Below the pieces are notes generated by a model. The model had not been told where the DNA came from, did not search any database, and saw only the letters and a program-made list of their open reading frames with translations. The translations under genes were made by a program, and so were the position numbers. From Alphaproteobacteria bacterium (GTDB taxonomy: Bacteria; Pseudomonadota; Alphaproteobacteria; Rs-D84), in NCBI GenBank assembly GCA_017443235.1, contig JAFSOV010000007.1, forward strand, positions 4,769-68,768: 64,000 nucleotides of DNA. The letters are read 5' to 3'. Below, piece after piece: positions 21,532 to 62,101 of the stretch (the stretch's first letter is position 1; each line of letters begins with the position of its first letter).

Positions 21532-22071
21532 ATGATTGTTGAAATAGAAGAATTTTCTTTTCGAAATATTATTCCACAATTTCGTGAGTTTAATTCTGCG
21601 GTGCGTGAAAATCGTGCGCGATTGACGCCGTACTTTTGGTGGGCGGATATAAATTCCATATCCAGATTCAATTTTATACTGTCCGGCGTGTTGACCGAAA
21701 AATTGACCCGCGTTATGCGTGATTTGCCGTATAACAAGAAATTTATAATCCGCGCAGACGGTGAATTTGCCGGCACAATTGGACTGGACGATGCGGCACA
21801 AAACGCATACCGCGCGGAACTCTGGATTTTTGTGACCGCGAAACATGCCGGGGCGCATGTTGCATCCCATTCGATAAAATTGATTGAAGAATACGCGTCA
21901 AAAAAATCTATTCAAAATATCTATGCGCGTACAGACGAACAGAATTGGAATTCGCGGAATATGTTGGCGGCCAATAATTATGAATTGAAACAAACAAAAT
22001 CAAACTTTTGGCGAAATGTGATTGAATTGCGTTGGAATAAAACGATTAAAACAAAAACTGTTGAAAAATAA
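21532..22071 (+). CDS. GNAT-family N-acetyltransferase (RimJ/RimL-like)
   Basis: 179 aa with a pattern typical of RimL-type GNATs: FIIRADGEFAGTIGLD, ELWIFVTAKHAGAHVAS and ARTDEQNWNSRNMLAANNYEL. Confidence 0.7.
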   Translation: MIVEIEEFSFRNIIPQFREFNSAVRENRARLTPYFWWADINSISRFNFILSGVLTEKLTRVMRDLPYNKKFIIRADGEFAGTIGLDDAAQNAYRAELWIFVTAKHAGAHVASHSIKLIEEYASKKSIQNIYARTDEQNWNSRNMLAANNYELKQTKSNFWRNVIELRWNKTIKTKTVEK

Positions 22072-22194: not shown

Positions 22195-22269
22195 GGTCCC
22201 ATCGTCTAGCGGTCAGGACATCGGATTCTCATTCCGGTAACATGGGTTCGATTCCCATTGGGACTGCCA
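22195..22269 (+). tRNA. tRNA-Glu (anticodon CUC), CCA encoded
   Basis: GGTCCCATCGTCTAGCGGTCAGGACATCGGATTCTCATTCCGGTAACATGGGTTCGATTCCCATTGGGACTGCCA folds by hand into a cloverleaf. It has a Glu-type 3-bp D stem (GTC/GAC), anticodon loop TTCTCAT and T-loop TTCGATT. Confidence 0.88.
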
Positions 22270-22298
22270 TCCGCTTTCGCTTACGCTACAGCGAGATT
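22264..22298 (+). repeat. 35-bp direct repeat, left copy (overlaps the last 6 nt of tRNA-Glu)
   Basis: CTGCCATCCGCTTTCGCTTACGCTACAGCGAGATT is identical to 25531-25565. Confidence 0.9.
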
Positions 22299-22393
22299 GG
22301 TTTTGCAAAAAACAAGCGAAGGTGGAGTGTTAGAGAAACGGATGTCTCGCTGTAATGAACGTAGTGAATGAAAGCGGACCGAATGGATTGAAA

Positions 22394-22633
22394 ATGTATT
22401 ATACTTATATCTTGCAAAGTATAAATTTTCCTAAACATTTTTATGTTGGATATACCCAGGATTTAGAACAGCGTTTAAAACAACACAATCTTGGTAATTC
22501 CATTCATACCAACAAATTTCGGCCTTGGAAATTACGAGGCTGTATTGCATTTGATACCGAAGACAAGGCAAAAAAGTTTGAACAATTTCTAAAAACCGGT
22601 AATGGCAGACTTTTTCAGAAAAAATTTTTCTAG
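22394..22633 (+). CDS. GIY-YIG nuclease-superfamily protein (YhbQ/UPF0213-like, ~80 aa)
   Basis: ORF 22355..22633 with a likely start at MYYTYILQS. The GIY (YTYIL) and YIG-type (FYVGYTQDLEQRLKQHN) blocks are present, followed by PWKL...E...A...E..LK. Confidence 0.82.
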   Translation: MYYTYILQSINFPKHFYVGYTQDLEQRLKQHNLGNSIHTNKFRPWKLRGCIAFDTEDKAKKFEQFLKTGNGRLFQKKFF

Positions 22634-22780: not shown

Positions 22781-25411
22781 TTACATTTTATGTTGGTCAT
22801 CTGGTTTGGTGCTGTTTTCTATATCCTGCACCGCACTCATCGCACCAACCACTTTTGTTCCATCTTGCAATGATTGCCACTTCTTTCGTTTTCGACCAGC
22901 CCAAGCTTTATCTATTAGTGCCTGTTTTTTACTTTTATGCACACATCTAGACACCATGGAACCATTTTTCATTTCAAGTATAAAACCTTCGAAATCCGGA
23001 TCGTGTCGAAGTTCGTCCAACAGTTTATTGGTAGTTGATGCATCATTACGTGGGAAATCTTTATCTTTTGCTAAATCATTAGCCGATAACCATTCATCTG
23101 TTTTAGGTGGATAATACTTAAATCCCGCTCTTTCGGCAAGTAATTGTTTTTTACTAACATGTATGCATTTGGTCACCTTACTTCTGGTTTTCATATTAAG
23201 TATAAATCCTTCAAAGTCAGGATCATGTTCAAATTTGTCCAATGCATCATAGATATATCTGATATGACCGCTTGGAAAATCTTTGTCTTTTATCAAATCA
23301 CTAGCCGATAGCCATTCATCTGTTTTAGGTGGGTATGTTCTAAATCCAGCTCTTTTCGCAAACAACAGTTTTTTACTAACATGCAAACACTTGGTAACTA
23401 AGCCACTACATTTCATATCAAGTATAAAACCTTCAAAGTCTGGATCGTATTCAAATTTGTCCAATGCATCATTGATATTTTCACGATTACTGTTGGGAAA
23501 ATCTTTATCTTTTGCCAAATCGTTAGCTGACAGCCATTCATCTGTCTTTAATGGATATGCTATAAATCCCGCTCTTTTTGCAAACAACAATTTTTTACTT
23601 TTGTGTATGCATTTGGTCACAAAGCCACCACTTTTCATATCGCGTATAAATCCTTCAAAGTCCGGATCATGTTGAAGTTCATCCAACGCTTTATTGATAA
23701 TAGGTGGCGTATTACGTGGGAAATCTTTATCTTTTGCTAAATCGTTAGCTGACAGCCATTCATCTGTCTTTAATGGATATGCTATAAATCCCGCTCTTTT
23801 TGCAAACAACAATTTTTTACTTTTGTGTATGCATTTGGTCACAAAGCCACCACTTTTCATATCGCGTATAAATCCCTCAAAGTCAGGATCGTGTTCAAAT
23901 TTATTCAATGCGTTATTGATTATTATCCAATCACTACGTGGGAAATCTTTATCTTTCGACAAATCTTTAACCGACAACCATTCATCTGTTTTTTCGGGAA
24001 TAAATTCGTCTGCTATGCGTTCTTCGGTTCGACGATTCAATTCGATTAGGGTTGCACTATCCGTAATCAAGTCGAAATCCACAAATTCGACATTGCCATG
24101 AGTGCGTGCACCTATGTTAGTTTTATCACGTTGAAAATCCTTGGGGTACAAAACGATATTACCTTCGGCGATATCTTTGAATAATACTTGATGCGAATTT
24201 GATGCCGTGTATAAAATTTCTTCAGGTGCTTCATTTTTTGTAGCACGAAATATAGTATCCAAAACAAATGCAATTTTATCGGGGTTATCTTCATCCAATC
24301 GTATTGCTCGACCGGCGGTCTGTTCCGCTTTGACCCGCGAACGTGTCGGATAATTTATACACAAAGCAACCGTTACATCATCAAACCCCTCGGTTAATGT
24401 CCCCACCTGACATGCGACAGTGTACCTGTTGCCATATTGGAATTCATCTTTTAAACTATTATATTCTTTATCGCCAATTCCTACTTTATGTAAAGATATT
24501 GCGACATCTTGTCCCATAACTTCATTTATTTTGGCTGCCTGTAAATTTGCAATTGCTGCATTTGGACAATTTATTATTGTTTTTAATGTCCTGAACTGTA
24601 TCCCTGTTTCTTTATCAAACCCATCCGCATAAATACGTGCGATTTCCGTTGCCAAAGTTTCTGGGCTGATTTTTGTTGTTATTTTTTCATAATCATAATC
24701 GCCGGTACTTGTTGCAGCCACCGAAGACAAATCGCATACAATACTTGAACGATAAAGGATGTTTTTCACTGGGCTTAGAACACCTCTATCTACAGCTTCT
24801 GGGATATTCATGGAGTATATTTCAGTGTTCAGCATATTCGCAACCGCACGATTTACTTCATATTTAGGTGTAGCGGTAAAACCTATAATTGGCACAAACT
24901 GGTTATAGAAAGTTAATTGTTCGGAAATTTTCGCCCCCAACATATGATGTGCCTCGTCCGCAAAAATCAGGGCAACATCATTAAAATCTACAACCCCAAA
25001 TAATTTTACTAACGAATTATAGGTCGTGATAATAACATCACTATTGATATTCTTTTTCTGTCCGCTGTATTCTGTTGCGGTAATGTTTGCGAATTTTTCT
25101 AGTTTTTTCTGTGTTTGTTCTATCAGTGATAAACGTGGCACAATTATTACAATTTTTTGGTGTTTTTTTGTACCGGTTGCAATAAGCGCATCAAAATAAG
25201 CACGTGCCATACGCGCAAACATAACCGTTTTGCCATAGCCAGTTGGCAATTTAAAATAACTATGTGCTATTTGTTCGTCTGTAAATTTGTCGGACACAAG
25301 TTCACGAAAAACCTCAAGTTTTTGCTTGTCACGCCACGTAGGCCAAGCATCTGCATCGGCTATCTGCCTGGCAAGACCCGTACGTAAAAGTTCCACATCT
25401 GTTGTATCCAT
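22781..25411 (-). CDS. SF2 (ResIII/DEAH-type) helicase with five C-terminal 74-aa tandem repeats
   Basis: 876 aa carrying motif I PTGYGKT, motif II FADEAHH, motif III FTATP and motif VI QTAGRAIR. From aa 474 onward KTDEWLS recurs at 474, 548, 622, 696 and 770. Confidence 0.85.
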   Translation of the reverse strand: MDTTDVELLRTGLARQIADADAWPTWRDKQKLEVFRELVSDKFTDEQIAHSYFKLPTGYGKTVMFARMARAYFDALIATGTKKHQKIVIIVPRLSLIEQTQKKLEKFANITATEYSGQKKNINSDVIITTYNSLVKLFGVVDFNDVALIFADEAHHMLGAKISEQLTFYNQFVPIIGFTATPKYEVNRAVANMLNTEIYSMNIPEAVDRGVLSPVKNILYRSSIVCDLSSVAATSTGDYDYEKITTKISPETLATEIARIYADGFDKETGIQFRTLKTIINCPNAAIANLQAAKINEVMGQDVAISLHKVGIGDKEYNSLKDEFQYGNRYTVACQVGTLTEGFDDVTVALCINYPTRSRVKAEQTAGRAIRLDEDNPDKIAFVLDTIFRATKNEAPEEILYTASNSHQVLFKDIAEGNIVLYPKDFQRDKTNIGARTHGNVEFVDFDLITDSATLIELNRRTEERIADEFIPEKTDEWLSVKDLSKDKDFPRSDWIIINNALNKFEHDPDFEGFIRDMKSGGFVTKCIHKSKKLLFAKRAGFIAYPLKTDEWLSANDLAKDKDFPRNTPPIINKALDELQHDPDFEGFIRDMKSGGFVTKCIHKSKKLLFAKRAGFIAYPLKTDEWLSANDLAKDKDFPNSNRENINDALDKFEYDPDFEGFILDMKCSGLVTKCLHVSKKLLFAKRAGFRTYPPKTDEWLSASDLIKDKDFPSGHIRYIYDALDKFEHDPDFEGFILNMKTRSKVTKCIHVSKKQLLAERAGFKYYPPKTDEWLSANDLAKDKDFPRNDASTTNKLLDELRHDPDFEGFILEMKNGSMVSRCVHKSKKQALIDKAWAGRKRKKWQSLQDGTKVVGAMSAVQDIENSTKPDDQHKM
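22904..23992 (-). repeat. Five in-frame 222-bp tandem repeats inside the helicase gene
   Basis: The period is exactly 222 bp. 23521-23656 and 23743-23878 are identical by eye, and the other copies are diverged. Confidence 0.9.
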
Positions 25412-25530
25412 ATTTAGACCTATCTTACGAATTGCATTGTACCATAAAAATCTAATAAAAACACCTTAATTTTCTTTCCGAACCGCAACAAATCTTTGAT
25501 TTCATCGGTTCGTGAATTGCACAGTATGTC

Positions 25531-25565
25531 CTGCCATCCGCTTTCGCTTACGCTACAGCGAGATT
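25531..25565 (+). repeat. 35-bp direct repeat, right copy
   Basis: CTGCCATCCGCTTTCGCTTACGCTACAGCGAGATT is identical to 22264-22298. Confidence 0.9.
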
Positions 25566-29210: not shown

Positions 29211-29232
29211 CGCCGCACGGCGGTTTTTTTTT
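29211..29232 (+). terminator. Rho-independent terminator after rpmH
   Basis: Short GC hairpin cgccgcacggcg followed by a run of 9 T. Confidence 0.7.
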
Positions 29233-29338
29233 AGTGGTTAGTGTTAGTGGATAGTGGTTAGTAAATTCTGGAATAAGTTCACAATTACAAAATTATTCCG
29301 GAACCTGCTAACCACTAACACTAACCACTAATCACTAA
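29231..29338. repeat. Palindromic TTAGTGG-unit repeat element (best-preserved copy)
   Basis: Left arm ttagtggttagtgttagtggatagtggttagta (29231-29263) and right arm ctaaccactaacactaaccactaatcactaa (29308-29338) are inverted. The core contains its own small inverted repeat, ctggaataa...ttattccgg. Confidence 0.85.
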
Positions 29339-48111: not shown

Positions 48112-48795
48112 ATGACACGGGTAATTTGTTTTGATATCGAAACCACAGGATTTGAATACCTGCGTGGTGACCGATGCATTGAAATCGGTGCGGTCGAGGT
48201 GGTGGACGGTAAAATCACCGACAACACATTTCACGAATATATAAATCCCGAAGGCAAAATAATTCCACCCGAAACATATATGGTGCATAAAATTTCAAAT
48301 GCATTTTTGGATGACAAGCCCAAGATGTCTGTCGTTGCACCAAAATTTCTGGAATTTGTCGGCGATTCGCCAATTGTTGCGCATAACGGGTTGGACTTTG
48401 ACTTTCCGTTTGTAAATCACGAATTGGAAATGTTGGGGTTGCCACAAATTCCGCGCACGCAAATGCAGGACACTTTGGTTATCGCACGCAACCGGGTATT
48501 TGGTCCCAAAAGTTATACTTTGGATGCATTGGCAAAATGGTTTGGCGTGTCTTTGACCGCGCGTGCGGATGCGCACGGCGCATTGATAGACAGCGAAATT
48601 TTGGCCAAGGTTTATTTGGAATTGGAAAATACCGCCCCGGCACCGGAAATCGCGGATATTGTCGCCGAACAACATGCGGCATTTTTAAAGCACCCGAAAA
48701 TTGGTGGCGATTTTCCGTATCGACAATTCCCCGTGTCGGCCCAAGAAGAAAAAATTCATAATGAATTTATGGAAAAAATAAAAGTTAGTGGTTAG
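48112..48795 (+). CDS. dnaQ: DNA polymerase III subunit epsilon (3'-5' exonuclease)
   Basis: Exo I is FDIETTG, Exo II is AHNGLDFDFPF and Exo III is HGALIDSEILAKVY. The ATG at 48112 is preferred over the TTG at 48091. Confidence 0.92.
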   Translation: MTRVICFDIETTGFEYLRGDRCIEIGAVEVVDGKITDNTFHEYINPEGKIIPPETYMVHKISNAFLDDKPKMSVVAPKFLEFVGDSPIVAHNGLDFDFPFVNHELEMLGLPQIPRTQMQDTLVIARNRVFGPKSYTLDALAKWFGVSLTARADAHGALIDSEILAKVYLELENTAPAPEIADIVAEQHAAFLKHPKIGGDFPYRQFPVSAQEEKIHNEFMEKIKVSG

Positions 48796-48874
48796 TCCGT
48801 CCCGGCATCCGCTTACGCTTGCGCTACAGCGAGATATGCCGCGGCCGCGACGGGTGTTAGCGGTTAGTGGATAG
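48784..48874. repeat. Composite repeat: two direct TTAGTGG-unit arms flanking a GC-rich hairpin that contains the CGCTACAGCGAGAT motif
   Basis: The arms are gttagtggttagt (48784-48796) and gtgttagcggttagtggatag (48854-48874). Between them, ccgtcccggcat...atgccgcggccgcgacgg encloses ggcatccgcttacgcttgcgctacagcgagat, which has 3 mismatches to the 35-bp direct-repeat core. Confidence 0.8.
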
Positions 48875-50617: not shown

Positions 50618-50692
50618 GCGGGCATAGTACAAGGGCTAGTACGCAAGCCTTCCAAGCTTGATGTGCGGGTTCGAGTCCCGCTGCCCGCACCA
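50618..50692 (+). tRNA. tRNA-Gly (anticodon UCC), CCA encoded
   Basis: GCGGGCATAGTACAAGGGCTAGTACGCAAGCCTTCCAAGCTTGATGTGCGGGTTCGAGTCCCGCTGCCCGCACCA gives a clean hand-folded cloverleaf with anticodon loop CTTCCAA. Confidence 0.93.
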
Positions 50693-50804: not shown

Positions 50805-50891
50805 GGGCGTGCGCCGGAGTTGGAGAGCCGGGGCAGACTGTAAATCTGTTGGCTTAAGCCTGAGGTGGTTCGAATCCACCCACTCCCACCA
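50805..50891 (+). tRNA. tRNA-Tyr (anticodon GUA), long variable arm, CCA encoded
   Basis: GGGCGTGCGCCGGAGTTGGAGAGCCGGGGCAGACTGTAAATCTGTTGGCTTAAGCCTGAGGTGGTTCGAATCCACCCACTCCCACCA has anticodon loop CTGTAAA and variable stem GGC/GCC. There is one C4:U69 mismatch in the acceptor stem. Confidence 0.85.
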
Positions 50892-50922: not shown

Positions 50923-51063
50923 CTTTGTCCAAACATGGCTGATTTCCGGGACGTTTTCAGGGTGTTTTGTGGTGAAAATATCTTGTATGTATATAGGGTT
51001 CGCCAAAATACGTTATTTTTCCAAAATTACATACAAAGCCGATTTTTTAACTGGAGATTCATC

Positions 51064-51933
51064 TCATATAATAAGACGCATCGCGACATTCATATCAGAA
51101 ATCCAAGGTTCTTGATTGTTATGATACAATGATAAATTGCGATCCAACTCTAGTTGTGTACTTTTGTACACAGCTTGCAATTCAACGATGTTTTGACCTT
51201 CTTTGGGGGCTATAATCTGGTTTGATATATCTTGTAGTTTTTTTACCTCATCTGTACACCAAATATGAAAGTTTTTTGAGAATTGAGCTTTTACGTTTTG
51301 CAACAATAGACTGGTGTGAAAGGATGCATACTTGTAAGCGTCTAAAATAGAGCAGTTTCCATCGCCATCAACATCTTGATTGTTGTTTTCAATAAACCAG
51401 CGAGAAAAGAAATACAGAAATATGTTTGCACACCAGGAAACTTCACTAAATTCAGCACTTAATGATTCACAAAAATTACTTGCACCAATAACACATATTT
51501 TTGATGTTGTTGGCGTATTGAAGACACCCGCAAAACACTGACCCAATAACAATAGGCCGTCAGTTAGTCCTGGAATGTTGTTTATACAGCTTAATATTTT
51601 GTTAGGATTTAATGTTGCTGCACCATCTATGTTTCCGTGTGACGACACGACACATCCTAAAAATGGTATACCAGATAATTTACCCATTTCAGTTTTAAAT
51701 TGAGATATTTCATAGACTTTATCTGTTGATATGTTTTTTAGTGCTAAAACTGATTTCAACTGCTCTACGTTATCAACAAAGAAATAAAAATTAGAATCAT
51801 TACCAGATTGTTTGGCTTTTAACTTCTCAGCAAAATTTTGTATATCAAACAAAAACCTCGGCAGATCCCTATCCATTTCAGCAATAAACACCCATACAGA
51901 ACTTTGCGCTGAAGTTTGGAGAATCTGAACCAT
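51064..51933 (-). CDS. Caspase/legumain-like (clan CD, C13-like) cysteine peptidase homologue (289 aa)
   Basis: A hydrophobic strand precedes His-Gly (FLGCVVSSHG, His99). A second strand precedes Cys (GLLLLGQCFAG, Cys133). Then come a legumain-like IGASNFCESLSA block and DVDGDGNCSILDAYKYA (a DxDGDGxxSxxEAxxY-like motif). This is motif-level evidence only. Confidence 0.5.
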   Translation of the reverse strand: MVQILQTSAQSSVWVFIAEMDRDLPRFLFDIQNFAEKLKAKQSGNDSNFYFFVDNVEQLKSVLALKNISTDKVYEISQFKTEMGKLSGIPFLGCVVSSHGNIDGAATLNPNKILSCINNIPGLTDGLLLLGQCFAGVFNTPTTSKICVIGASNFCESLSAEFSEVSWCANIFLYFFSRWFIENNNQDVDGDGNCSILDAYKYASFHTSLLLQNVKAQFSKNFHIWCTDEVKKLQDISNQIIAPKEGQNIVELQAVYKSTQLELDRNLSLYHNNQEPWISDMNVAMRLII

Positions 51934-51935
51934 AA

Positions 51936-52178
51936 TTAATCCTTTTGGAGTATAACCAAATCAGATCTATCGGCATTCTCTGGCATTTTATCAAGTGGTG
52001 GTAAAATTAACTTTCCAGTTACGTTTATTCTGAAATACAGATCGCCAACCACCATTATATATTTTGTTCCTCTATCATCAAAACCATCCTGTTGTGAATA
52101 TAACGCAATATTTCCACTCATAATTTCATTTCTTATTTGTGGCGGAAGATCTACTAATACATCATACTTTAAAATCAT
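51936..52178 (-). CDS. Hypothetical small protein (80 aa), translationally coupled to the C13-like gene
   Basis: Its stop TAA lies 2 nt before the ATG of the downstream gene. It has its own AT-rich upstream region of ~160 bp. I recognised no motif. Confidence 0.55.
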   Translation of the reverse strand: MILKYDVLVDLPPQIRNEIMSGNIALYSQQDGFDDRGTKYIMVVGDLYFRINVTGKLILPPLDKMPENADRSDLVILQKD

Positions 52179-52338
52179 ATTTGACCCTTTTGCAATGTCA
52201 TTATATCACAAATTATCCATATTTGTTATGAAATATTTAGCACATAAAAATGGAAAAATCAACTTGATAAGATACGGTTTATATACTTAACCGTCTTGAT
52301 GCAGGCATTATATCATAAAACAACATAAAAATCAAGAA

Positions 52339-53928
52339 TTAAAGCATGTTTGGCAGATTAAACAACTTATCAACACTACATTGCAACTTGCCAGACATGA
52401 TGTCATTGATAGTATGCGGGTTCATATATGCAAGTTTCAGATGTCGGTATACACTGCTTTCCGAGACATTTTCTGCTCTTGCGATTGATTTATAATCACT
52501 ATTTTTTTCATATAATTCACGATATTTAAATGCACGTGCAAATGTACGAACAATTAAATGATTATTATCAGTAATACTGATAGCACCAGATTTGCCACAG
52601 TTATATTCATTGCTTTTGTTGTATTTACTAAGAATAAATAGCTGTTCAATTATTATGGTGTCACCATTCACAATGTAATCCATTTGATTGGTTGATTCAT
52701 TTATGAAATCATCACACATAAATTGTTTCAAATCATTACTTAATTTCAAATAAAACGTCAGTTTGTTGTCGGAATAAACTACTTTATCAACAATTGTTTT
52801 TATAAATTCTCGTTTCTGCGTATACGGCAAACTTTGTACATTTACACGTTTTAACATCAATGTTATATCCGGTGGTAATTTTTGCATGTCAGAATTCAAA
52901 AAATCGATGATGGTATTCATTGCAATTTCATCAACACTAAGTGACGGAATATAAAAACCAGGTTTTGAATAGTAATATTTTATAGGTTGTCCAGATTTTC
53001 GTGTTTGTTGATTTGTGAATTTAGTACCATCTATATCAAATAATTTTCCAGTCAGTAAATTTGGTGAACCAGCATAACGATTACCTTTATGATTACCATT
53101 TCTGTTCAATGCCATTTGAACACGATTGAACAAATCTTTTTCTATGATTGCCGCATGTTCACCCTTTACAGATGTTCCACCAGATTTACAGACCATATTC
53201 CCAATATAAACTTCATCACGCAATAAATTGTGCAACGTTTGTTGATAAAATTCTGCGCCACCACGCACAACACCTTTCTTGGTTGTCCATTGCTTGTTAT
53301 GGATATTGTTTTCACGTGCGAAGCGAACTAATTCAACCACAGATTGTAATTCCAGATATTTTTCAAATAAGATTTTTACCTGTTCTGCTTCGGATTTATT
53401 AATAATCAACTTTTTATTTATTATGTCATAACCAAGTCGCGGATTACCACCAACCCAAATGCCTTTGGCTTTTGATGCACGAATTTTATCACGCACACGT
53501 TCACTGGCAACCTCGCGTTCAAACTGAGCAAATGACAGCAACATGTTCAATGTCAATTTACCCATAGAATTTGATGTGTCAAATGACTGTGTTATGGATA
53601 CAAAATTCGCACCGTATTTCTCAAAATATTTCATCATATTATGAAAGTCCAGAATTGAACGTGACAACCGGTCGACCTTATAAACAACCACTGTGTTTAC
53701 CAAACCGTGTGCCATATCGTCCAACATTTGCTTTAACGCCGGACGTTCCATAGTCCCGCCAGATATTGCCGCATCACTGTATGTTTTATAATATTGCCAA
53801 CCGTTGAATGTTTGGGACGCAATATATGCTTTGCAAGATTCTTCTTGGTTTTGCAAAGAATTGAATTCCATATCTAAACCGTGTTCGGTTGATTTGCGAA
53901 CATATATGGCACATCTATTTATCGGCAT
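52339..53928 (-). CDS. Large serine recombinase (integrase)
   Basis: 529 aa with a resolvase-type N-domain (CAIYVRKSTE catalytic Ser, VYKVDRLSRS, LSFAQFERE), followed by a recombinase domain and a long C-terminal region. Confidence 0.9.
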   Translation of the reverse strand: MPINRCAIYVRKSTEHGLDMEFNSLQNQEESCKAYIASQTFNGWQYYKTYSDAAISGGTMERPALKQMLDDMAHGLVNTVVVYKVDRLSRSILDFHNMMKYFEKYGANFVSITQSFDTSNSMGKLTLNMLLSFAQFEREVASERVRDKIRASKAKGIWVGGNPRLGYDIINKKLIINKSEAEQVKILFEKYLELQSVVELVRFARENNIHNKQWTTKKGVVRGGAEFYQQTLHNLLRDEVYIGNMVCKSGGTSVKGEHAAIIEKDLFNRVQMALNRNGNHKGNRYAGSPNLLTGKLFDIDGTKFTNQQTRKSGQPIKYYYSKPGFYIPSLSVDEIAMNTIIDFLNSDMQKLPPDITLMLKRVNVQSLPYTQKREFIKTIVDKVVYSDNKLTFYLKLSNDLKQFMCDDFINESTNQMDYIVNGDTIIIEQLFILSKYNKSNEYNCGKSGAISITDNNHLIVRTFARAFKYRELYEKNSDYKSIARAENVSESSVYRHLKLAYMNPHTINDIMSGKLQCSVDKLFNLPNML

Positions 53929-54355
53929 TTTTCGTCCTTTTGGCTATTCCAAAGAAATCTGGTCCCGATATTTTTATGCCGGTTATATCCATCGCAACTG
54001 CTGACAAAGTTCGGTATCTTTTATCGTTATACGCGAACCCGTCGTCTGTAACGACAACATTGTGTTTAATGCCACGAAATGTCTTGGTTATGGTGCTACC
54101 GATGGTTAGGTTGTATTTATTTTTATGCACCTTATCCAAACAAGCATTGGGGTTATCCTTATATTTGCGAATTTTTACCATATATTTTGGTTCTATTCGC
54201 AGTTTTAATCGGTCGCATTGAATGTAATACCACAGGGCAAAATTCTGGCGTTTGAACGGGTATTGCGAATACTTTGCCCACAATCGCCCACGTTCTGCAA
54301 ATGACAGGCGTTTTAACTCTGCCAAACTCTGCGGTAAATCAGTTTCATACGACAT
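53915..54355 (-). CDS. DUF2924-family protein (recombinase-associated)
   Basis: 146 aa. The C-terminal block GSTITKTFRGIKHNVVVTDDGFAYNDKRYRTLSAVAMDITGIKISGPDFFGI matches my recollection of DUF2924. It overlaps the recombinase start by 14 nt, which is the typical pairing. Confidence 0.7.
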   Translation of the reverse strand: MSYETDLPQSLAELKRLSFAERGRLWAKYSQYPFKRQNFALWYYIQCDRLKLRIEPKYMVKIRKYKDNPNACLDKVHKNKYNLTIGSTITKTFRGIKHNVVVTDDGFAYNDKRYRTLSAVAMDITGIKISGPDFFGIAKRTKNADK

Positions 54356-54476
54356 ATAAACTCCTTTTAACGTCGTCCAATTACCGCTCTAAAGAAGCCG
54401 AAAGTCAAGTTATTTTAAGAAAATTTCTTGAATAAATTGTATATTTATGTAGTATGTACGTCACAAGAGGTAACAA

Positions 54477-55565
54477 ATGGCATCGTTTGAAGATATACAA
54501 AATAAATTAAATGAATTACGTAGTATTATAGGAGAGATAGAACAAGTTTGGCCTACAGATCAATTAGATCAAAAAGAAAAAGTCAACGTTCTTATGCGAT
54601 TTGCAACAGATAGATTACAAAGCGAATATGTACAATTGTTGCATGTAAATGAAATTAATAATATATTTAATGCAATAAACGCTATTATTGCGGATCTTAC
54701 TAATTACAAAAATACAAAACATCCAAATTATATTCGTAATGCCGTAGCTCAAATTAATAATTTAAGAGTACAACTGAACGCGATTCCAACAAGTAGCATA
54801 AACCAAATTTCGTTAAGAAAGTTAATTGCTGAATGTTCTAAAATGAAAGATGTAAACGCGAAAACAATAGACCAATTAAGACAACAGCAAGACGATTTAA
54901 AAAGTAGAGGTGATCGGATATTAAATCAGGCAATAAATTTATTATCAAATGTTACTACTGGGGTTTTATCGAAGGAATTTGAACTAAAACGTCAAACGGA
55001 AATAGGAGGTTTGCCACAGAATTTTAAACCACTTAAATGGCTAGGCGTAAAAAAATTGGGTGTTTATCAAAAAAACACTATTGGGCTATGGTTATTATTA
55101 TTAATTATGTGTTGCATAGTTATATTTGGGGGATATCTAATTGATTATATTGTTGTTTTGGACAAACCACAAACATCATTATGGATTTATGCTTTGATAA
55201 AATTTATAGTAAGATTATCCATATTGGGACCACTAATTTGGTTAGCTATTGTGCAAAACAAAAAGATGAATTTATCAAAAAAATTAGCTGAGGAATACTG
55301 GCATAAGGAAATTATAACAAAAACATTTGTTGGATTGTCTGATCAGATTGATAAAACAACAGAAGGAGAAACGTCAAAAAAATTAAGACTAAAATTATTA
55401 GAATTGACATTAGATACAATTGCGAAAGATCCTGCAGACTGTATAGGAAACCACAATGATGCAGACAACCCCATGCATAATATTATGAAAATATCAAATA
55501 AGGGCTTGGGTAAAGTGAATGATATATTAGATATAACTAAAAAGACAAAAGAAGTTTTAGAATAA
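54477..55565 (+). CDS. Hypothetical membrane protein: N-terminal helical/coiled-coil region, 2-3 TM helices, C-terminal helical domain (362 aa)
   Basis: The TM segments are IGLWLLLLIMCCIVIFGGYLIDYIVVL and LWIYALIKFIVRLSILGPLIWLAIV. It is the first gene of a co-directional, tightly spaced four-gene block. Confidence 0.6.
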   Translation: MASFEDIQNKLNELRSIIGEIEQVWPTDQLDQKEKVNVLMRFATDRLQSEYVQLLHVNEINNIFNAINAIIADLTNYKNTKHPNYIRNAVAQINNLRVQLNAIPTSSINQISLRKLIAECSKMKDVNAKTIDQLRQQQDDLKSRGDRILNQAINLLSNVTTGVLSKEFELKRQTEIGGLPQNFKPLKWLGVKKLGVYQKNTIGLWLLLLIMCCIVIFGGYLIDYIVVLDKPQTSLWIYALIKFIVRLSILGPLIWLAIVQNKKMNLSKKLAEEYWHKEIITKTFVGLSDQIDKTTEGETSKKLRLKLLELTLDTIAKDPADCIGNHNDADNPMHNIMKISNKGLGKVNDILDITKKTKEVLE

Positions 55566-55581
55566 ATTAATTAGGCTAATA

Positions 55582-55863
55582 ATGATAAAATCGTTTAATT
55601 GTCGTGAGACAGAAAAGATTTTCAACGGCAAGTGTTCTAAGGACTTTCCTGCAGATATTCAGTCTAGAGCATTTAAGAAATTAAGCATGATTAATGCGTC
55701 TGAAAAGGTGGAAGATTTACGTCTTCCGCCATCAAATCATCTTGAAAAGTTGTCAGGAGATCGTAAGGGGCAATGGAGTATTCGTATAAACGGTAAGTAT
55801 AGAATATGTTTTACTTGGACCGAGAAAGAAGCAAATAATGTGGAGATAGTAGAATATCATTAA
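55582..55863 (+). CDS. higB: HigB-type toxin (RelE/ParE superfamily, plasmid maintenance system killer)
   Basis: 93 aa containing IKSF....TEKIF.G......P.......A.KKL..I and LRLPPSNHLEKLSGDRKGQWSIRINGKYRICFTW, which is the classic HigB pattern. Confidence 0.85.
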   Translation: MIKSFNCRETEKIFNGKCSKDFPADIQSRAFKKLSMINASEKVEDLRLPPSNHLEKLSGDRKGQWSIRINGKYRICFTWTEKEANNVEIVEYH

Positions 55864-55870
55864 ATAATAC

Positions 55871-55899
55871 TTGACTTTTCTTATTATCTATTACATAAT
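55871..55899 (+). promoter_or_regulatory. Sigma70-like promoter candidate in front of higA
   Basis: ttgact (55871-55876), a 17-nt spacer, then cataat (55894-55899). Confidence 0.35.
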
Positions 55900-55923
55900 A
55901 CATAATAAAAGAATAGGTAAGCT

Positions 55924-56265
55924 ATGTCTAACTATATTGATATTGAACATGTTGGTACTATTTTAAAAGAAGAATTCATGGAACCTTTGGGGTTGTCCAT
56001 GAATGCTTTGGCGCGTGCAATAGACGTTCCTGCTAATTATATTCATGGAATAGTTCACGGTACGCGGGGTATATCTGCAATGTTAGATTTACGTTTAACT
56101 CATTATTTTGGATTGTCTCAAGGATATTTTCTGCGTATTCAGACACATTATGATATGGTGTTGGCTTCTCGTAATATAACAAGTAAAGAATTAGCGAAAA
56201 TTATACCTTTTAGACCATTAGACAGTCGTCCTGCTAACGATGATTTTAAACGGATAGCGATGTAA
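55924..56265 (+). CDS. higA: HigA-type antitoxin (XRE-family HTH)
   Basis: 113 aa containing ILKEEFMEPLGLSMNALARAIDVPANYIHGIVHGTRGISAMLDLRLTHYFGLSQGYFLRIQTHYD. It follows higB in the toxin-first order typical of HigBA. Confidence 0.85.
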   Translation: MSNYIDIEHVGTILKEEFMEPLGLSMNALARAIDVPANYIHGIVHGTRGISAMLDLRLTHYFGLSQGYFLRIQTHYDMVLASRNITSKELAKIIPFRPLDSRPANDDFKRIAM

Positions 56266-56320
56266 ATATTTCCTTCAAAAGTCTAATTGTATGATAATAT
56301 CCTCCTAAAAGGAGACGTTT

Positions 56321-57487
56321 ATGGATATATCTAATATTTATAATTTGTCAGAAGAACAACTTGTAAAATATCAAAACAATCCATTCCCAGATGATGAAAT
56401 TAGACCGGGTTTGAAGGGTTTTGCTAAAAAATTCAAAGAGGAAATATCCGTTTTGCCGACACCATATGTTATGGCTCTTGAAGGCGGTTATGGAACAGGT
56501 AAAACGTATTTTATTACAAGATTTTGTGAGTATTTGAAAAAAGTAAATTTTGATGGAGATGAATCTATTTTTGCTATTTATTTAAATTTGTGGGAAAGGG
56601 ATTATATAGAAAATCCGTTTCCTGTCATATATTCTCAAATAATATCCGCATTGGAACCTGGTCATGAATTACAAAAATCTATAAGAGATAACGCAGTAAA
56701 AATTACAAAGAATTTGTTAAAATTTGGTGCGAAGGCATTTGGTGGGTTAGATATAAGTGAATTGTTGCCAGATCCAGAACAAGAAAAAGCTGATTTGATA
56801 TCTTTTAAACAATCAATGCAACAAGTAATTGCGGAAAAAGGCACAAAAGTTGTTTTAGTCGTCGATGAGTTGGATAGATGCAAACCTGATTATGCGGTAA
56901 AAGCTCTTGAAACACTAAAACACTTTTTTGATATAGAGGGCTTATTTGTGATATTAACTACAAAACTTGATTTTATGAACAATATATGTGAGGCATATTA
57001 TGGTCATCCCCAGTGCAAGGTTAATATGGGCGAAGGTTATATACAAAAATTTGTTCAATCAACAAAGATTTTAAATCCAACATCTAAAGAGGACTATTGG
57101 TTTATAATAAACAGGATTTTGAATAAGGATACCCTACCGGTCAGAATGCCTAATTATGGACAAGCACTAGAAAGAGACAGCGATGAAAATTTATACGCGA
57201 TTAACGGTTTTCAAAATAATATGGCTGAACTGTTTTGTACAGCTAAATTTTCAATACGTAAAACGATTGATGTTTCCAAAGAATGTTTGAATATTATCAA
57301 AAAGTATAAAGGTAAGATATGGGAACGAATATATGCTGGCTTCCCTGAGTTTATATTGATCAGGTATTTAAAAGCAAAATCTTTGATTCCAGAAAATTTT
57401 CCAGATCCAAAAGTTGGTTGGGACTACAAAACAGACTCTTCAAGAGTAAATAATTTCATCGAGGAAACTTTAAAAACATTACTATAA
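56321..57487 (+). CDS. KAP-family P-loop NTPase (short, no obvious TM insert)
   Basis: 388 aa with Walker A LEGGYGTGKTYF and the Walker B/KAP block VLVVDELDRCKPDYAVKALETLKHFF. Confidence 0.8.
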   Translation: MDISNIYNLSEEQLVKYQNNPFPDDEIRPGLKGFAKKFKEEISVLPTPYVMALEGGYGTGKTYFITRFCEYLKKVNFDGDESIFAIYLNLWERDYIENPFPVIYSQIISALEPGHELQKSIRDNAVKITKNLLKFGAKAFGGLDISELLPDPEQEKADLISFKQSMQQVIAEKGTKVVLVVDELDRCKPDYAVKALETLKHFFDIEGLFVILTTKLDFMNNICEAYYGHPQCKVNMGEGYIQKFVQSTKILNPTSKEDYWFIINRILNKDTLPVRMPNYGQALERDSDENLYAINGFQNNMAELFCTAKFSIRKTIDVSKECLNIIKKYKGKIWERIYAGFPEFILIRYLKAKSLIPENFPDPKVGWDYKTDSSRVNNFIEETLKTLL

Positions 57488-58141
57488 TGTTCTGTCTTCG
57501 ATATTGGTACGTTGGTGTTGGCGTGATAACTCCCATAACGTTTTGCCATTGTACATAAAATCTTTTGCTCCGTCTGGCAACCCTTTAATTCCATTGTTCG
57601 GGTTCGTTTGATCGCGAAATCTTTTTGCGGCAATACTTAATGTTGAACTTTCGCCATTCAAAAAGAAAACTCTCCGCCAATCATTGCCGGTTTTTACCCT
57701 TAATTTTGGCTTTGATACAAATGTCAATATAGTTCCAACGGGAATATTTAACGATTTAAATGTGATAGTTTTACGTTGGTTTTTGATTGCTACTTTTTCT
57801 TCTGGTAAAAACGCATTTTTTATTGGAACTTCGACAGCGCTACCACTTGCAATATGGACAGATAATAAGTTAATTGCATCATCAACGCTCATTTTGAAGA
57901 ACTCACGATTTGGATTGTGTCGTAATTTTGTTAACCCCTTGTGAATCAATTTTTCTATATCTTTATAATTGTTCACGCAAATTGCGAATTTTGCTTCAAA
58001 TGGTTGTGGCATGTTTTCTCCGTGTGACAATTCTTTACGGCGTTTTTCAACATCTTTTGATGTACTGCCTTGGGTCACACCAATTTTCACCAGTTCTGGA
58101 AATAACTCATTCCACATTACATAAATAATTCCACGGTTCAT
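57482..58141 (-). CDS. T5orf172 / GIY-YIG-like domain protein (219 aa)
   Basis: The N-terminus GIIYVMWNELFPELVKIGVTQGS...RRKELS...PFE...NREFF has the T5orf172 (MUG113) pattern. The C-terminal ~100 aa are uncharacterised. It converges on and overlaps the KAP gene by 6 nt. Confidence 0.7.
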   Translation of the reverse strand: MNRGIIYVMWNELFPELVKIGVTQGSTSKDVEKRRKELSHGENMPQPFEAKFAICVNNYKDIEKLIHKGLTKLRHNPNREFFKMSVDDAINLLSVHIASGSAVEVPIKNAFLPEEKVAIKNQRKTITFKSLNIPVGTILTFVSKPKLRVKTGNDWRRVFFLNGESSTLSIAAKRFRDQTNPNNGIKGLPDGAKDFMYNGKTLWELSRQHQRTNIEDRTL

Positions 58142-58158
58142 TTGGTTGCTCCTATATA

Positions 58159-58656
58159 TTACCTTGCATATCTATTCTGGTATTTATTTGTATTATAAAT
58201 TCCTGTTAGACCGCGTGTTTGTGACACTGGCACTAAACTTAAATCATTGCCCCAACCACCACATTGCAGTTCCATAAACGTTCTTCTTCCAGAAATAATA
58301 TTCACATCATCACCAACTCTACTTTCTGTTGGTAGAGCAGCTCCTGCATAATAAACCGAACTTTTTGCGTTGCCTGATATATTATGATTACCAGGCGTTA
58401 AATTTACACAAAAGTACTCATTGCCTGTACGGATATCGCCGATTGTGCGTTCATAGTTATCAATAAAAGTGAATTTTAGTCCTTTATCACAAGTGTAAGC
58501 ATCGCCAACACGTGATATACATAATTGTCCCTGTCCGTAATTCATAGGTGGCAATTTTGTTGCCACAGCATGTGTTTCAGAAACAGACAATTCCTGTATT
58601 GATGTAACACAAGCAGCTAAACTGCAAACTAACCCCAAAATTATAAAATTTTTCAT
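58159..58656 (-). CDS. Lipoprotein (165 aa), possibly DUF2846-like
   Basis: The lipobox is LVCSLAAC. The pattern FIDNYERTIGDIRTGNEYFCVNLTPGNHNISG resembles DUF2846 (from memory, weak). Confidence 0.65.
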   Translation of the reverse strand: MKNFIILGLVCSLAACVTSIQELSVSETHAVATKLPPMNYGQGQLCISRVGDAYTCDKGLKFTFIDNYERTIGDIRTGNEYFCVNLTPGNHNISGNAKSSVYYAGAALPTESRVGDDVNIISGRRTFMELQCGGWGNDLSLVPVSQTRGLTGIYNTNKYQNRYAR

Positions 58657-58680
58657 CGCGCTCTCCTTTTTTTGGTATTA

Positions 58681-58710
58681 ATTAAAAACCGCTATCATCA
58701 AGAGAGCGGT
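58681..58710 (-). terminator. Rho-independent terminator downstream of terL
   Basis: The stem accgct/agcggt is followed by a T-run on the minus strand. Confidence 0.65.
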
Positions 58711-58898
58711 TGGAGGTTAGTTACTACCAAATGAATAGTGTGGCTTATTTGGCAAATGCCTTATTCACCGACCCTCCAACCATAAGGCTGCAGGGCTATT
58801 AACGTCAGCGCTGACGCATTTGGAGAGGTAACTACACCCCAACATCGGGATCCCCGACATCAGTCCTATTTTACAATAAACATGTTGTTTTATCAAGT

Positions 58899-60347
58899 TT
58901 ATACGATAAATAAGTGTGGGGTTGGTTGCGCAATTATTTTGGTGCAGTATAGAACACCCTGTGCAAAGGCATCGCATTGGTCTTTGAATGCGGAATTTGG
59001 GAACAGCAACAATTCTTTTTCAAAATTATCCCAAAAATGGTTGTGGATTGATGGAAATAATACCGTTCCACGATAAACATATGCTGATGCACCATTCATA
59101 CGCGCAACTTTGTCTTCGTCTGGATGAACGGCTTGAATATACGTGCTACGGATACCATTTTCTGGCAAAAATTGAATAAGTTGAGTACCCGACGAAGCAT
59201 CCTCTATAACAACTTTATGTTGTGCTCTTGGATATGCTGAACATAAATAATCAAATTTAGATTTTACCATATTTGCCAAGTGCGGAAATTCAAGTTTATC
59301 GCGATAAATGTCCAACAGATAAATATGTTTGTCTGCAGAAATTCCGAACGTTATGCATGCAGAATATGCGTTTGTCGAGCCTGTTTTTGATGCGGTGTCC
59401 CAAGATGTAATTATATGCGTAAAGTTTTCGGGTATTGCCGTATAATATTGCATCCATTCAGATTTGATTATGCAACCTTCCTGGGGCGCAGGTAATTGTT
59501 GATATTGTCCAGCGAACACCAATTCACCGACACTGTTTTTGATGCGCATAACGGTTTCAATGGATTCACGTTCCGGATGTAGTGGTGTCCCAATCGTTCG
59601 CTTAAAAACACGATTTGATTGTGTGAAGTGTATTTGTTCATCCGTGTCCGCAATAATCGGCAATCGCAGGAGTTGAAAATCATCACTATTTTCTAACAGG
59701 TGTCCAGTCAGGTCATCTTGATGCAATCGCTGCATAATTAATAAAATGCGACCGGTGTTTTTATCATTTAACCGCGAAAATAACGTTGTATGATACCAAT
59801 CATTCACTCGATTTCGTATAATTTCTGAATTTGCATCAACAGGTTTTATCGGGTCGTCAATAATTATCCATTCTGCACCACGTCCAGTTAAAACACCACC
59901 AACAGATGTCGCAAAACGTCCACCATGGACGGTTGTTTCAAAATCATCTTTGGCGAATTGTTGCTTGGAAATTCGTGTTTGTGGAAACACGTGTTTATAC
60001 CAATCTGTTGTCATAACCGTTCTGGTATCATTTGCGAATTTAGTTGCCAGGTCATCAGAATAACTTACACATATTATGTGTGAACGCGGATTGTGCCCCA
60101 GTATAAACGCTGATAAAGCAACCGAACAAATGATGGATTTCATATATCGTGGCGGTATATTGATAATCAGGCGGTTTTTATTGCCATTAATAACATTAAC
60201 GATATAATCGCAAACCAGGTCGATATATTCTCCGTCTATGTATCCGCCGCCACCAGATATTTCATTGAACACTTTAATAACGAACGATTTAAAATCTGTT
60301 CGTAATAACGAATAAAACACATCTAATTCAGTAATATTATTGTCCAT
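58899..60347 (-). CDS. Phage terminase large subunit-like protein
   Basis: 482 aa with an ATPase N-domain (LIINIPPRYMKSI Walker-A-like, IIIDDPIKP Walker B) and a nuclease C-domain. It is preceded by a DUF5681-type small gene, as in alphaproteobacterial prophages and GTA-like clusters. Confidence 0.75.
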   Translation of the reverse strand: MDNNITELDVFYSLLRTDFKSFVIKVFNEISGGGGYIDGEYIDLVCDYIVNVINGNKNRLIINIPPRYMKSIICSVALSAFILGHNPRSHIICVSYSDDLATKFANDTRTVMTTDWYKHVFPQTRISKQQFAKDDFETTVHGGRFATSVGGVLTGRGAEWIIIDDPIKPVDANSEIIRNRVNDWYHTTLFSRLNDKNTGRILLIMQRLHQDDLTGHLLENSDDFQLLRLPIIADTDEQIHFTQSNRVFKRTIGTPLHPERESIETVMRIKNSVGELVFAGQYQQLPAPQEGCIIKSEWMQYYTAIPENFTHIITSWDTASKTGSTNAYSACITFGISADKHIYLLDIYRDKLEFPHLANMVKSKFDYLCSAYPRAQHKVVIEDASSGTQLIQFLPENGIRSTYIQAVHPDEDKVARMNGASAYVYRGTVLFPSIHNHFWDNFEKELLLFPNSAFKDQCDAFAQGVLYCTKIIAQPTPHLFIV

Positions 60348-60711
60348 TGTGCGATTTGACGTATTGTTGCAATATTAGTTTGTCGTCGTGATTCAGGTGT
60401 TCGCGTGCCGCGGACATGGCTTCGTATTCCGCATCTGCGACATCGCTTAATTCCATTATCCACTTTGCAGAATTCAGGTCGCCTTGTAGAGCTTTGTTGG
60501 TTTGTTTTGCGATAATGCCTTCTTTGGTACTAATACGACGACTATTGCCATCCGGACTCGTCAAAGTTATTTTGCGGTTCATTTGCTCACGCACAATCGT
60601 ATTGCGATTACGAACACCACGTGGGCGACCACGTGGATTGCCCGATTGTCCCTTTTGATATTGGTGTTCTTTTGGCGGGACACAAAACCCGCATTTTTGT
60701 TCATTAGGCAT
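60337..60711 (-). CDS. DUF5681-family protein (putative small terminase-like)
   Basis: It contains PPKEHQYQKGQSGNPRGRPRG, the hallmark GNP.GRP.G block. I trimmed the start to MPNEQK. It overlaps the terL start. Confidence 0.65.
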   Translation of the reverse strand: MPNEQKCGFCVPPKEHQYQKGQSGNPRGRPRGVRNRNTIVREQMNRKITLTSPDGNSRRISTKEGIIAKQTNKALQGDLNSAKWIMELSDVADAEYEAMSAAREHLNHDDKLILQQYVKSHNGQ

Positions 60712-62032
60712 TTTGCACCTCCTTAGCTGCATGTTTTTCCACCAACAAATCCGTATATGTTTTACCAGTACGCAGATTTATCGCATCAATACCGAATGCC
60801 TCGTAAAAACGTTTTACACAGGTATCGACATATTTCGGTTCGTATTCAATTCCATAACAAATGCGTTTATGCCGTTGCGCCGCGATAAATGTGCTGCCAG
60901 ACCCCAAGAAACAATCCAAGACGGCATCGCCAATACTTGTTACGTCCAACATAATATCGCTTAACATCTCGAAACTTTTAACGGTTGGATGCATTTTCAA
61001 ATCATTGCGGTGCGGTCCATACGAATTACATCCATAGTAATGCCAAACATTACTGCGATTGCGTCCGTATTTGCCTAATTGAATATGGTCGGGAACCTTG
61101 CCATCTTTGTTCAAGAATACAGTGCATAACTCATGCTGACTTCGGTAAGGCGTTCCCATGCCAGCCTTGTTTTTAACCCACACGCACAGGTTGATATATC
61201 GTGCAAAATTTTGTTTGCAGGCGGTCAGCATAGGCATAACGTTTCGCCAATCTATGAAATTAAAAATCATGGCATTGTCATTGGCAAATTCTGAACAAAG
61301 CGCAAAGTTTTTACCAAGAAATTCCGTATATTCGGAATCTGACATTTCCCCGGCAGCCATTGCAAAGTCTGGATGTTTAACACTGCCGTTGCCAGACACA
61401 AATCCTTTGATTTTTATATTAAACGGCGGATCTTGCAAAACCAGATTTACCCGTTTGTTACCAAGCAGTTTCGCAAAAGTATCACGATCTGTGCTGTCGC
61501 CACAAATAATTCTGTGACCGCCGTCAAATTCCCAAATATCGTCAGGGACTGTGATTATCTCATCATCCGCCACATATGGCACCGCATCCAGTTTTTTGAC
61601 TTCGGCCTTTGTACGCGGTTCTGCCAAGATTTGATCGATTTCAATGTCATTAAATCCGGTAATTGTTATGTCTGAAACATCTTCCAGTTCGCATAATTCG
61701 CTGATTTCTATATTCAAAATATCCGCATTCCATCCGCCACCATTTTCAGATATTCGATTGTCGGCAATCCGCAACTTGCGTTTTTGGACATTGGTCAAAT
61801 GTCCAATACGTATCACAGGCACTTGTGGCAGATTTAATACCTTGGCTGCCTCAAATCGTCCGTGTCCGGCGATGATTTCACCATTTTCATCAATCAAGAT
61901 TGGATTCACAAAACCGAACTGATGAATGGAATCAGCAATTTGACTAATCTGGTCTGGACTGTGAATTTTTGCGTTATTTTTATAAGGTTTTAATTGTTCA
62001 ACGTTTACGGTTTCGATTTTTAATTCTGTCAT
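60704..62032 (-). CDS. ParB-like nuclease domain fused to a DNA (N6-adenine/N4-cytosine) methyltransferase
   Basis: The ParB-N block is LKPYKNNAKIHS...ILIDENGEIIAGHGRFEAAK. The catalytic motif is LVLQDPPFN (DPPF). The SAM motif is VLDCFLGSGSTFIAA, giving beta-class order. Confidence 0.85.
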   Translation of the reverse strand: MTELKIETVNVEQLKPYKNNAKIHSPDQISQIADSIHQFGFVNPILIDENGEIIAGHGRFEAAKVLNLPQVPVIRIGHLTNVQKRKLRIADNRISENGGGWNADILNIEISELCELEDVSDITITGFNDIEIDQILAEPRTKAEVKKLDAVPYVADDEIITVPDDIWEFDGGHRIICGDSTDRDTFAKLLGNKRVNLVLQDPPFNIKIKGFVSGNGSVKHPDFAMAAGEMSDSEYTEFLGKNFALCSEFANDNAMIFNFIDWRNVMPMLTACKQNFARYINLCVWVKNKAGMGTPYRSQHELCTVFLNKDGKVPDHIQLGKYGRNRSNVWHYYGCNSYGPHRNDLKMHPTVKSFEMLSDIMLDVTSIGDAVLDCFLGSGSTFIAAQRHKRICYGIEYEPKYVDTCVKRFYEAFGIDAINLRTGKTYTDLLVEKHAAKEVQNA

Positions 62033-62101
62033 TGCATATACCTTTGGTTAATTCACAACGAATATATGCGGACAGAATCAGGGTTGCAATAACTCGTTTC
62101 T

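Follow-up and report, generated by a model that had tools for sequence, protein, structure and literature searches.

The helicase gene and its motor core

We examined a 64,000-nt stretch of DNA from an alphaproteobacterium of the order Rs-D84 (GenBank assembly GCA_017443235.1, contig JAFSOV010000007.1, positions 4,769 to 68,768 of the forward strand), which we call the window. The gene of interest lies on the reverse strand at 22781–25411, with its stop codon at 22781–22783, and encodes an 876-residue superfamily 2 (SF2) helicase that ends in an array of tandem repeats. The assignment draws on the listing of open reading frames (ORFs), on Pfam, and on approximately 120 homologs recovered with the whole protein. 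Three parts follow one another on that strand: an ATPase/helicase core with two RecA-like domains (aa 1–473; 23993–25411), five repeat units starting at aa 474, and a conserved C-terminal tail (aa 844–876; 22784–22882). The SF2 helicase itself is of a known kind. What is new here is the accessory repeat array, which is built from a previously undescribed domain.

The core was delimited from its motifs, its match to PHROG 16, and an AlphaFold2 (AF2) model compared with known structures in Foldseek. An earlier note on this DNA, made from the letters alone, had named four helicase motifs, and all are present as described: PTGYGKT (motif I) at aa 56, DEAH (II) at aa 152, TATP (III) at aa 179, and QTAGRAIR (VI) at aa 364. 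Pfam supports them, with ResIII (1.4e-21) and DEAD (4.7e-18) above threshold in the N-terminal 473 aa, along with SWI2_SNF2 (2.8e-9). The protein therefore has what defines an SF2 helicase, namely a Walker A motif, a DExH box, motif III, an arginine-finger motif VI, and two RecA-like domains. Across 90 homologs, K61, D152, E153, Q364, G367, R368, and R371 are invariant. These are residues of Walker A, Walker B, and motif VI, and their invariance shows that the ATPase is under purifying selection.

The top sequence match of the core is PHROG 16, “DNA helicase” (E 4.1e-42, 145 bits, aa 46–405), a group of DEAD/DEAH helicases from replication modules of temperate phages. Helicases of Paenibacillus, Streptococcus, and Flavobacterium phages are 24–28% identical to the core over approximately 80% of its length, with E values down to 7e-20. 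Judged by sequence, the motor belongs to a clade of DEAD/DEAH helicases of phage replication modules. However, the related helicase loci tested in viral contigs lack the repeat, whereas the family described here is mostly chromosomal and is absent from the viral contigs of IMG/VR, where distant core-only helicases without the repeat were found instead.

The full-length AF2 model has a mean predicted local distance difference test score (pLDDT) of 85.8. Its top Foldseek matches are RadD of E. coli and XPB/Ssl2 (E approximately 1e-13 to 1e-11), with many SF2 structures at E < 1e-10, and a sequence search of the PDB returned Rad25 and HsdR. Identity to RadD and XPB is only 12–20%, and the C-terminus of the helicase is wholly different. 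Beyond the SF2 core, Pfam detected no domain at all, whether a nuclease or another kind of effector, and none of the accessory domains of RadD or XPB was identified. RadD orthology (NF053632) was rejected at 33.9 bits against a cut-off of 720, even though RadD is the best NCBIfam match. A type I or type III restriction R subunit was rejected as well, since the ATPase core alone matches (hsdR, 19.9 bits against 284.55; EcoAI, 29.7 against 550). There are no mod, hsdM, or hsdS genes in the window or at related helicase loci.

A conserved and very rare repeat domain

The motif KTDEWLS starts at aa 474, 548, 622, 696, and 770, which confirms the five units with an exact 74-aa (222-bp) period reported in the earlier note. 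Tandem Repeats Finder scored the array at 1034 and 1140, and each unit matches the family repeat hidden Markov model (HMM) at E values from 1e-18 to 1e-24. All units are read from the reverse strand, and their boundaries follow from the KTDEWLS period combined with the repeat HMM. They comprise unit 1 (aa 474–547; 23771–23992), unit 2 (aa 548–621; 23549–23770), unit 3 (aa 622–695; 23327–23548), unit 4 (aa 696–769; 23105–23326), and unit 5 (aa 770–843; 22883–23104). The fifth is the most diverged, and in the AF2 model its last helix continues into the tail. Between units, pairwise identity is 53–84% at the amino acid level and 64–87% at the nucleotide level. The array is basic (isoelectric point 8.9), while the core is acidic (5.3).

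No Pfam, NCBIfam, or PHROG model matches the repeat, either in the whole protein or in its units. When 131 diverse units were scanned singly against Pfam, no family was matched by more than two of them, and a profile search of the PDB returned nothing better than E 0.45. The best of those matches was the helix-turn-helix (HTH) of AtxA, and the matches fall in HTH or winged-helix regions of AtxA and ScpB. Sul7s, an NCBIfam candidate for the repeat, was rejected as sub-threshold (24.6 against 100 bits). The view that the repeat belongs to no named domain thus held in every database tried. When 1.84 billion cluster representatives were searched with a profile built from the 131 units, 151 proteins were retrieved at E ≤ 1e-3. 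On these sequence comparisons, the domain is real, conserved, and very rare. Our literature search, which covered Enterousia and tandem winged-helix helicases, turned up no mention of this protein.

An AF2 model of unit 2, computed with the 131-unit alignment, has a mean pLDDT of 88.4. The predicted topology is a β-strand (residues 5–7 of the unit), an α-helix (8–13), a loop, a second helix (22–32), a β-hairpin (42–56), and a final helix (57–67). W5, L11, C54, and F63 are conserved in at least 90% of units, and the conserved positions chiefly form the hydrophobic core. The modeled fold plausibly resembles a winged helix of the MerR/excisionase type (Xis, HTH_17), with which it shares the predicted order of β-α-α-β-hairpin and then helix. 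It differs in having no significant sequence or profile similarity to those domains and in its long inter-helix loop of approximately eight residues. To our knowledge, domains of the MerR/excisionase type do not occur in arrays of 5–10. The sub-significant Foldseek lists for the unit (TM-score 0.45–0.6, probability up to 0.97) consist mostly of MarR, PadR, and ArsR regulators, together with phage proteins annotated as “HTH DNA-binding,” Excise, MerR-like, Cox, and PrtN. The suggestion that the repeat is a small nucleic-acid-binding module was a reasonable guess, given the predicted winged-helix-like fold and the basic array.

A Cys-x-His pair in the last β-strand of the unit, such as C-I-H at aa 527–529, recurs in most units. 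The Cys is present in at least 90% of the 131 units, and His is the majority residue at its position.

The tail, which ends ...LQDGTKVVGAMSAVQDIENSTKPDDQHKM, was defined from the family’s tail sequences and the AF2 model, where it forms a long helix of lower confidence. The motif L/F-x-x-G-T/I-K-V/A-V-x-A ... P-D-D/N-Q-H/Y is common to distant clades of the family and to some proteins that consist of repeats only. This pattern of conservation suggests that the tail may be a docking peptide.

Turnover of the array

Units 1 and 2 share a perfect run of 137 bp (23517–23653 and 23739–23875). The earlier note had seen such a run but placed it at 23521–23656 and 23743–23878, where 135 of 136 positions match; the run is real, and its position is shifted by 3–4 bp. 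Variation between close relatives points the same way as this run. Four proteins that are nearly identical wherever their sequences overlap carry the unit sets ABCDE (P0004), BCDE (P0009), ABCE (P0010), and CDE (P0014), so whole units have been gained or lost between near-identical strains, in line with the recent duplication or concerted evolution that had been proposed. Unit number also varies widely among homologs: an iterated repeat HMM detected between one and nine units, starting near aa 475, in almost every full-length member. Repeats of 222 bp can, however, be collapsed in assemblies made from short reads. The identical run and the mosaic composition of the units indicate duplication and gene conversion, and the array turns over by duplication, deletion, and gene conversion.

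Differences between units are not evenly spread. They cluster in codons 19–24, which cover the end of the loop and the first turn of helix 2, and at the tip of the hairpin. The proportion of nonsynonymous differences (pN) is 0.47 in codons 19–25, 0.32 in the hairpin, and 0.15 elsewhere. Discrete types of the variable block (RN[ST]PxIIN, SG[HY]PxKIN, and SNT[FL]VxIN) recur at differing positions across species. Synonymous sites are saturated across species, which makes the ratio of nonsynonymous to synonymous rates uninformative for the variable block. We take the two variable patches to reflect relaxed or diversifying evolution.

Distribution and genomic context

The family was found at 32 loci in 30 genomes when one genome per GTDB species was scanned, and nearly all of these genomes are labeled “Candidatus Enterousia” or uncultured (Alpha)proteobacteria from rumen, caecum, or feces. 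Some genomes hold two paralogs. The next-best helicases outside the family do not exceed 28% identity, and the repeat is missing from them. As far as the sequence searches reach, the helicase family is specific to the Rs-D84/“Ca. Enterousia” lineage. Members of Enterousia (order Rs-D84) have genomes of 0.75–1.0 Mb and are believed to rely on another organism as a partner (PMC12306168). One family member (L027; CAZJGX010000049.1) comes from a metagenome-assembled genome (MAG) labeled Muribaculaceae. Its 6.5-kb contig is probably mis-binned, because all other members come from alphaproteobacterial MAGs.

The repeat is not confined to the SF2 helicase. Repeat-only proteins of 8–10 units with proper N-termini exist, and three of them (P0125, P0123, and P0153) lie in an informative genomic context. 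At L068 (758–4390), P0125 has 10 units and is followed 37 bp on by a PIF1/RecD-type superfamily 1 (SF1) helicase on the same strand. At L069 (211–4593), P0123, also of 10 units, precedes a 3-unit ORF and, after it, a PIF1 helicase, again on the same strand. Since repeat-only proteins lie directly upstream of PIF1 at two loci, the array is linked to helicases of two superfamilies. Further helicase architectures appear among other, weak matches to the repeat.

The surroundings of the SF2 helicase fall into several kinds. The gene follows gyrA-merR in the window and at L008 and L038, adjoins ligA and PBP1a at L031–L035, and lies near ribosomal protein genes at L012–L015. At L004, L017–L025, and L037, it sits in variable islands rich in GNAT, HExxH-motif, and ATP-binding cassette (ABC) exporter genes. 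When all ORFs of 35 loci were clustered, no universal neighbor gene emerged; GNAT and ABC genes recur without being fixed.

A GNAT of the RimJ/RimL type (Acetyltransf_3) lies within 7 kb of the helicase at approximately 13 of the 35 loci (L001, L004, L008, L009, L016–L018, L023–L025, L027, L037, and the window, with its copy at 21532–22071). These GNAT genes are often accompanied by MsbA-like ABC exporters and small HExxH-motif proteins, in varying position and on either strand.

The helicase gene has a GC content of 0.35–0.39 against 0.44–0.49 in its flanks. Its closest homologs (P0004 and P0010, at L001 and L009), with a core 92% identical, lie inside a mobile element, between terminase/ParB-methylase genes and a serine recombinase. 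The helicase is mobile cargo, at least sometimes. There are no phage genes around the copy in the window. Elsewhere in the window, however, at approximately 51000–62100, an integrated element of GC 0.30–0.39 lies beside tRNA-Gly (50618–50692) and tRNA-Tyr (50805–50891). It carries a serine recombinase (52339–53928), a KAP-family nucleoside triphosphatase (NTPase; 56321–57487), a T5orf172/GIY-YIG-like gene (57482–58141), a terminase large subunit (58899–60347), and a ParB-N6 DNA methylase (60704–62032). This element is homologous (47–60% at the amino acid level) to that of L001 and L009, with the KAP NTPase and T5orf172 genes in place of the repeat helicase.

Proposed role of the array

Our preferred explanation, to which we give a probability of about one half, is that the protein is a DNA-dependent helicase of the Rs-D84/“Ca. 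Enterousia” lineage whose motor is targeted or tethered by the winged-helix-like array. The array of ~70-aa units would bind nucleic acid, most likely duplex DNA, and once bound it would tether or target the helicase motor. Contact would be made by the hairpin tip and by the hypervariable residues that immediately precede and begin helix 2. The length and composition of the array would change from strain to strain as units are duplicated, deleted, or altered by gene conversion. What we infer here is that the array binds DNA, that it targets the motor, and which surface makes the contact. A C-terminal winged helix on a nucleic-acid motor is known from the FtsK gamma domain and the RecQ winged-helix domain, which recognize DNA sequence or structure. 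Both of those are single winged helices rather than a fast-changing array, and neither has a sequence relationship to the repeat. If the array does bind DNA, it would represent a repeat-based module for nucleic-acid binding that is so far undescribed and that evolves through the shuffling of its units. The domain would add a family to the databases, and the array could account for differences between strains of a rumen and gut lineage that is uncultured. That gut bacteria with sub-megabase genomes and a dependence on partners keep such an array on helicases of two superfamilies is an investment that suggests an important role.

Several observations weigh against this explanation. Foldseek of the unit gave no match at E ≤ 0.001, the best being E 0.28 in the PDB and 0.04 in BFVD, and hhalign of the repeat profile against the MerR protein encoded in the window gave a probability of 0.1. 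Consequently, the winged-helix assignment is plausible and unproven. Helix 2 of the predicted fold, IINKALDELQH, has a neutral to acidic character that would be unusual in a recognition helix, and winged helices can bind protein or RNA too. No candidate target DNA for the array was identified. One of the repeat-only proteins, P0153, has no helicase neighbor. Among the seven closest pairs, nonsynonymous and synonymous changes stand at 16:4 inside the variable block and 50:31 outside it (Fisher p = 0.19); given this result and the saturation of synonymous sites, we do not claim positive selection.

The first alternative is that the gene serves antiphage or anti-plasmid defense, or counter-defense. 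The helicase would sense or translocate on foreign DNA, the array would lend it a changing specificity, and an effector would be encoded elsewhere or be unneeded. The rapid shift in array length and composition between strains fits such a role, as do the low GC content, the homologs in a mobile element (P0004 and P0010), the KAP NTPase and T5orf172 genes that the window’s element carries in that region, and the many homologs in variable islands with GNAT, HExxH, and ABC genes. Since the helicase is sometimes mobile cargo, defense and element maintenance both keep some probability, with no effector or fixed partner present. Hachiman (HamAB), Gabija (GajAB), Nhi, and type I and III restriction systems likewise contain an SF1 or SF2 helicase. 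However, the PADLOC comparison gave no confident match to a known defense system. PADLOC-DB 2.0 matched the generic SF2 core only (PbeA, HsdR, Cas3, and HamB), at no more than 36 bits, the best being PbeA (35.8 bits over 200 residues of the core). Nor does the protein contain a nuclease or effector domain, and no partner gene, nuclease and methylase genes included, is conserved across 30+ loci. Other clades, moreover, sit in stable housekeeping synteny (with ligA, with ribosomal protein genes, or after gyrA-merR), and the family is absent from IMG/VR. On the PADLOC results and the context of the helicase loci, we rejected defense as the leading explanation, and we consider it unlikely.

Another possibility is that the array is a scaffold that binds protein or RNA, recruiting the motor to RNA polymerase, the ribosome, or the replisome, or driving oligomerization. 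Here the non-basic helix in the “recognition” position and the conservation of mostly hydrophobic-core residues are what would be expected. The conserved tail motif suggests a docking peptide, and winged helices often mediate protein contacts. Against this stand the closeness of the core to DNA helicases, the overall basic charge of the array, and its association with PIF1, a second type of DNA helicase. We hold this explanation to be rather improbable.

Tandem winged-helix Rep initiators bind iterons. By analogy, the protein might be a helicase that replicates or maintains an integrative mobile element, with the array binding iterated origin-like sites and loading the motor. The likeness of the core to helicases of phage replication modules would suit this role, and some homologs do lie inside the terminase/ParB-methylase/serine-recombinase element. 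In addition, a 35-bp perfect direct repeat (22264–22298 and 25531–25565) brackets a block made up of the helicase and the adjacent GIY-YIG gene. Yet a third copy of that repeat lies 23 kb away, and the repeat looks like a dispersed, terminator-like sequence. No iteron-like DNA repeats were found near the helicase gene. In the window, as at L008 and L038, the gene has gyrA-merR on one side and housekeeping genes on the other, and element genes are absent from its surroundings. A role in element replication seems to us doubtful.

More ambitious, and more speculative still, is the idea that the array is a modular, re-assortable DNA reader. Each unit might use its hairpin tip and its hypervariable block of six residues to read a short subsite. 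By gaining, losing, and shuffling units, strains could conceivably re-program the target of the helicase to which the array is attached (SF2) or with which it is co-encoded (PIF1), although we would not expect to find this. It would be, as a long shot, a prokaryotic analog of the logic of transcription activator-like effectors (TALEs) on another fold and coupled to a motor. TALE and TALE-like arrays, too, consist of tandem near-identical units with a short hypervariable block, vary in unit number and order between close strains, and show discrete block types that recur at different positions. A TALE repeat, however, is a two-helix unit of 33–35 aa, whereas the unit here is winged-helix-like, ~70 aa long, and fused to a helicase. 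The likeness is one of sequence pattern alone. In the best case, the array would be a new modular DNA-recognition scaffold.

The GIY-YIG neighbor and other repeats in the window

A small gene of the GIY-YIG nuclease family (22355–22633, forward strand) lies next to the helicase and is not part of the helicase unit. The earlier note had called it correctly: the ORF scores 54.9 bits against PF01541 (gathering threshold 22.6; E 1.1e-14), and its translation reads YTYIL...FYVGYT...R...E. Because most of its 41 close homologs are 79 aa long, the true start is probably the ATG at 22394. A tRNA-Glu(CTC) gene (22195–22269, forward strand; ARAGORN and Rfam), overlooked in that note and likewise not part of the helicase unit, lies 86 bp upstream.

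That the two adjacent genes, enclosed by the 35-bp direct repeats, form a helicase–nuclease module is very improbable, since they are convergent, tblastn found the GIY-YIG gene at none of the 30+ other family loci, and its homologs occur after tRNA genes in unrelated contexts without the helicase. The syntenic locus L008 keeps the order gyrA-merR-helicase-(tRNA-Glu)-GNAT-...-dac-recR-rsmA, with the tRNA-Glu present and no GIY-YIG gene. In two other contexts, tRNA-Ser(CGA) and tRNA-Thr(GGT) are followed, 90–120 bp downstream, by homologs of the GIY-YIG gene (71–75% identical), and neither context has a repeat helicase close by. A two-gene system is therefore unsupported, and a helicase beside a small nuclease is insufficient for calling a defense system. 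The inserted cassette that had been proposed keeps some support for the helicase alone, from its lower GC content and the homolog with a 92% identical core in a mobile element, but not for a cassette that includes the GIY-YIG gene.

With Glu-CTC in the window, three different tRNA genes in related genomes have a GIY-YIG gene downstream. The non-coding pieces that flank the gene in the window are 97–99% identical to L008 in permuted order, and a 9-bp piece of the tRNA 3′ end (ATTCCCATT) is repeated at 22251 and 22732. The gene is tRNA-linked and, to judge from these rearranged flanks, probably mobile; it may be a tRNA-targeting mobile gene. GIY-YIG genes of 79–92 aa are co-oriented with their tRNA in the window (22195–22633) and at L117 (4791–5240), L120 (427–876), and L121 (4842–5270).

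Two other kinds of repeated DNA were noted in the window. A dispersed repeat of 35–42 nt, at 22256–22297, 25523–25564, and 48794–48835, contains a short hairpin (TCGCT...AGCGA), and its first copy is followed by a T-rich tail; by its form, it could be a terminator-like element or one resembling repetitive extragenic palindromic sequences. Inverted arrays of a heptamer, (TTAGTGG)x4–5 followed 45–80 bp on by (CCACTAA)x4–5, occur in intergenic DNA at 1335–1480 and 29231–29338. One of these sites lies between rpmH and a 308-aa ORF, and the paired arrays would form long imperfect hairpins.

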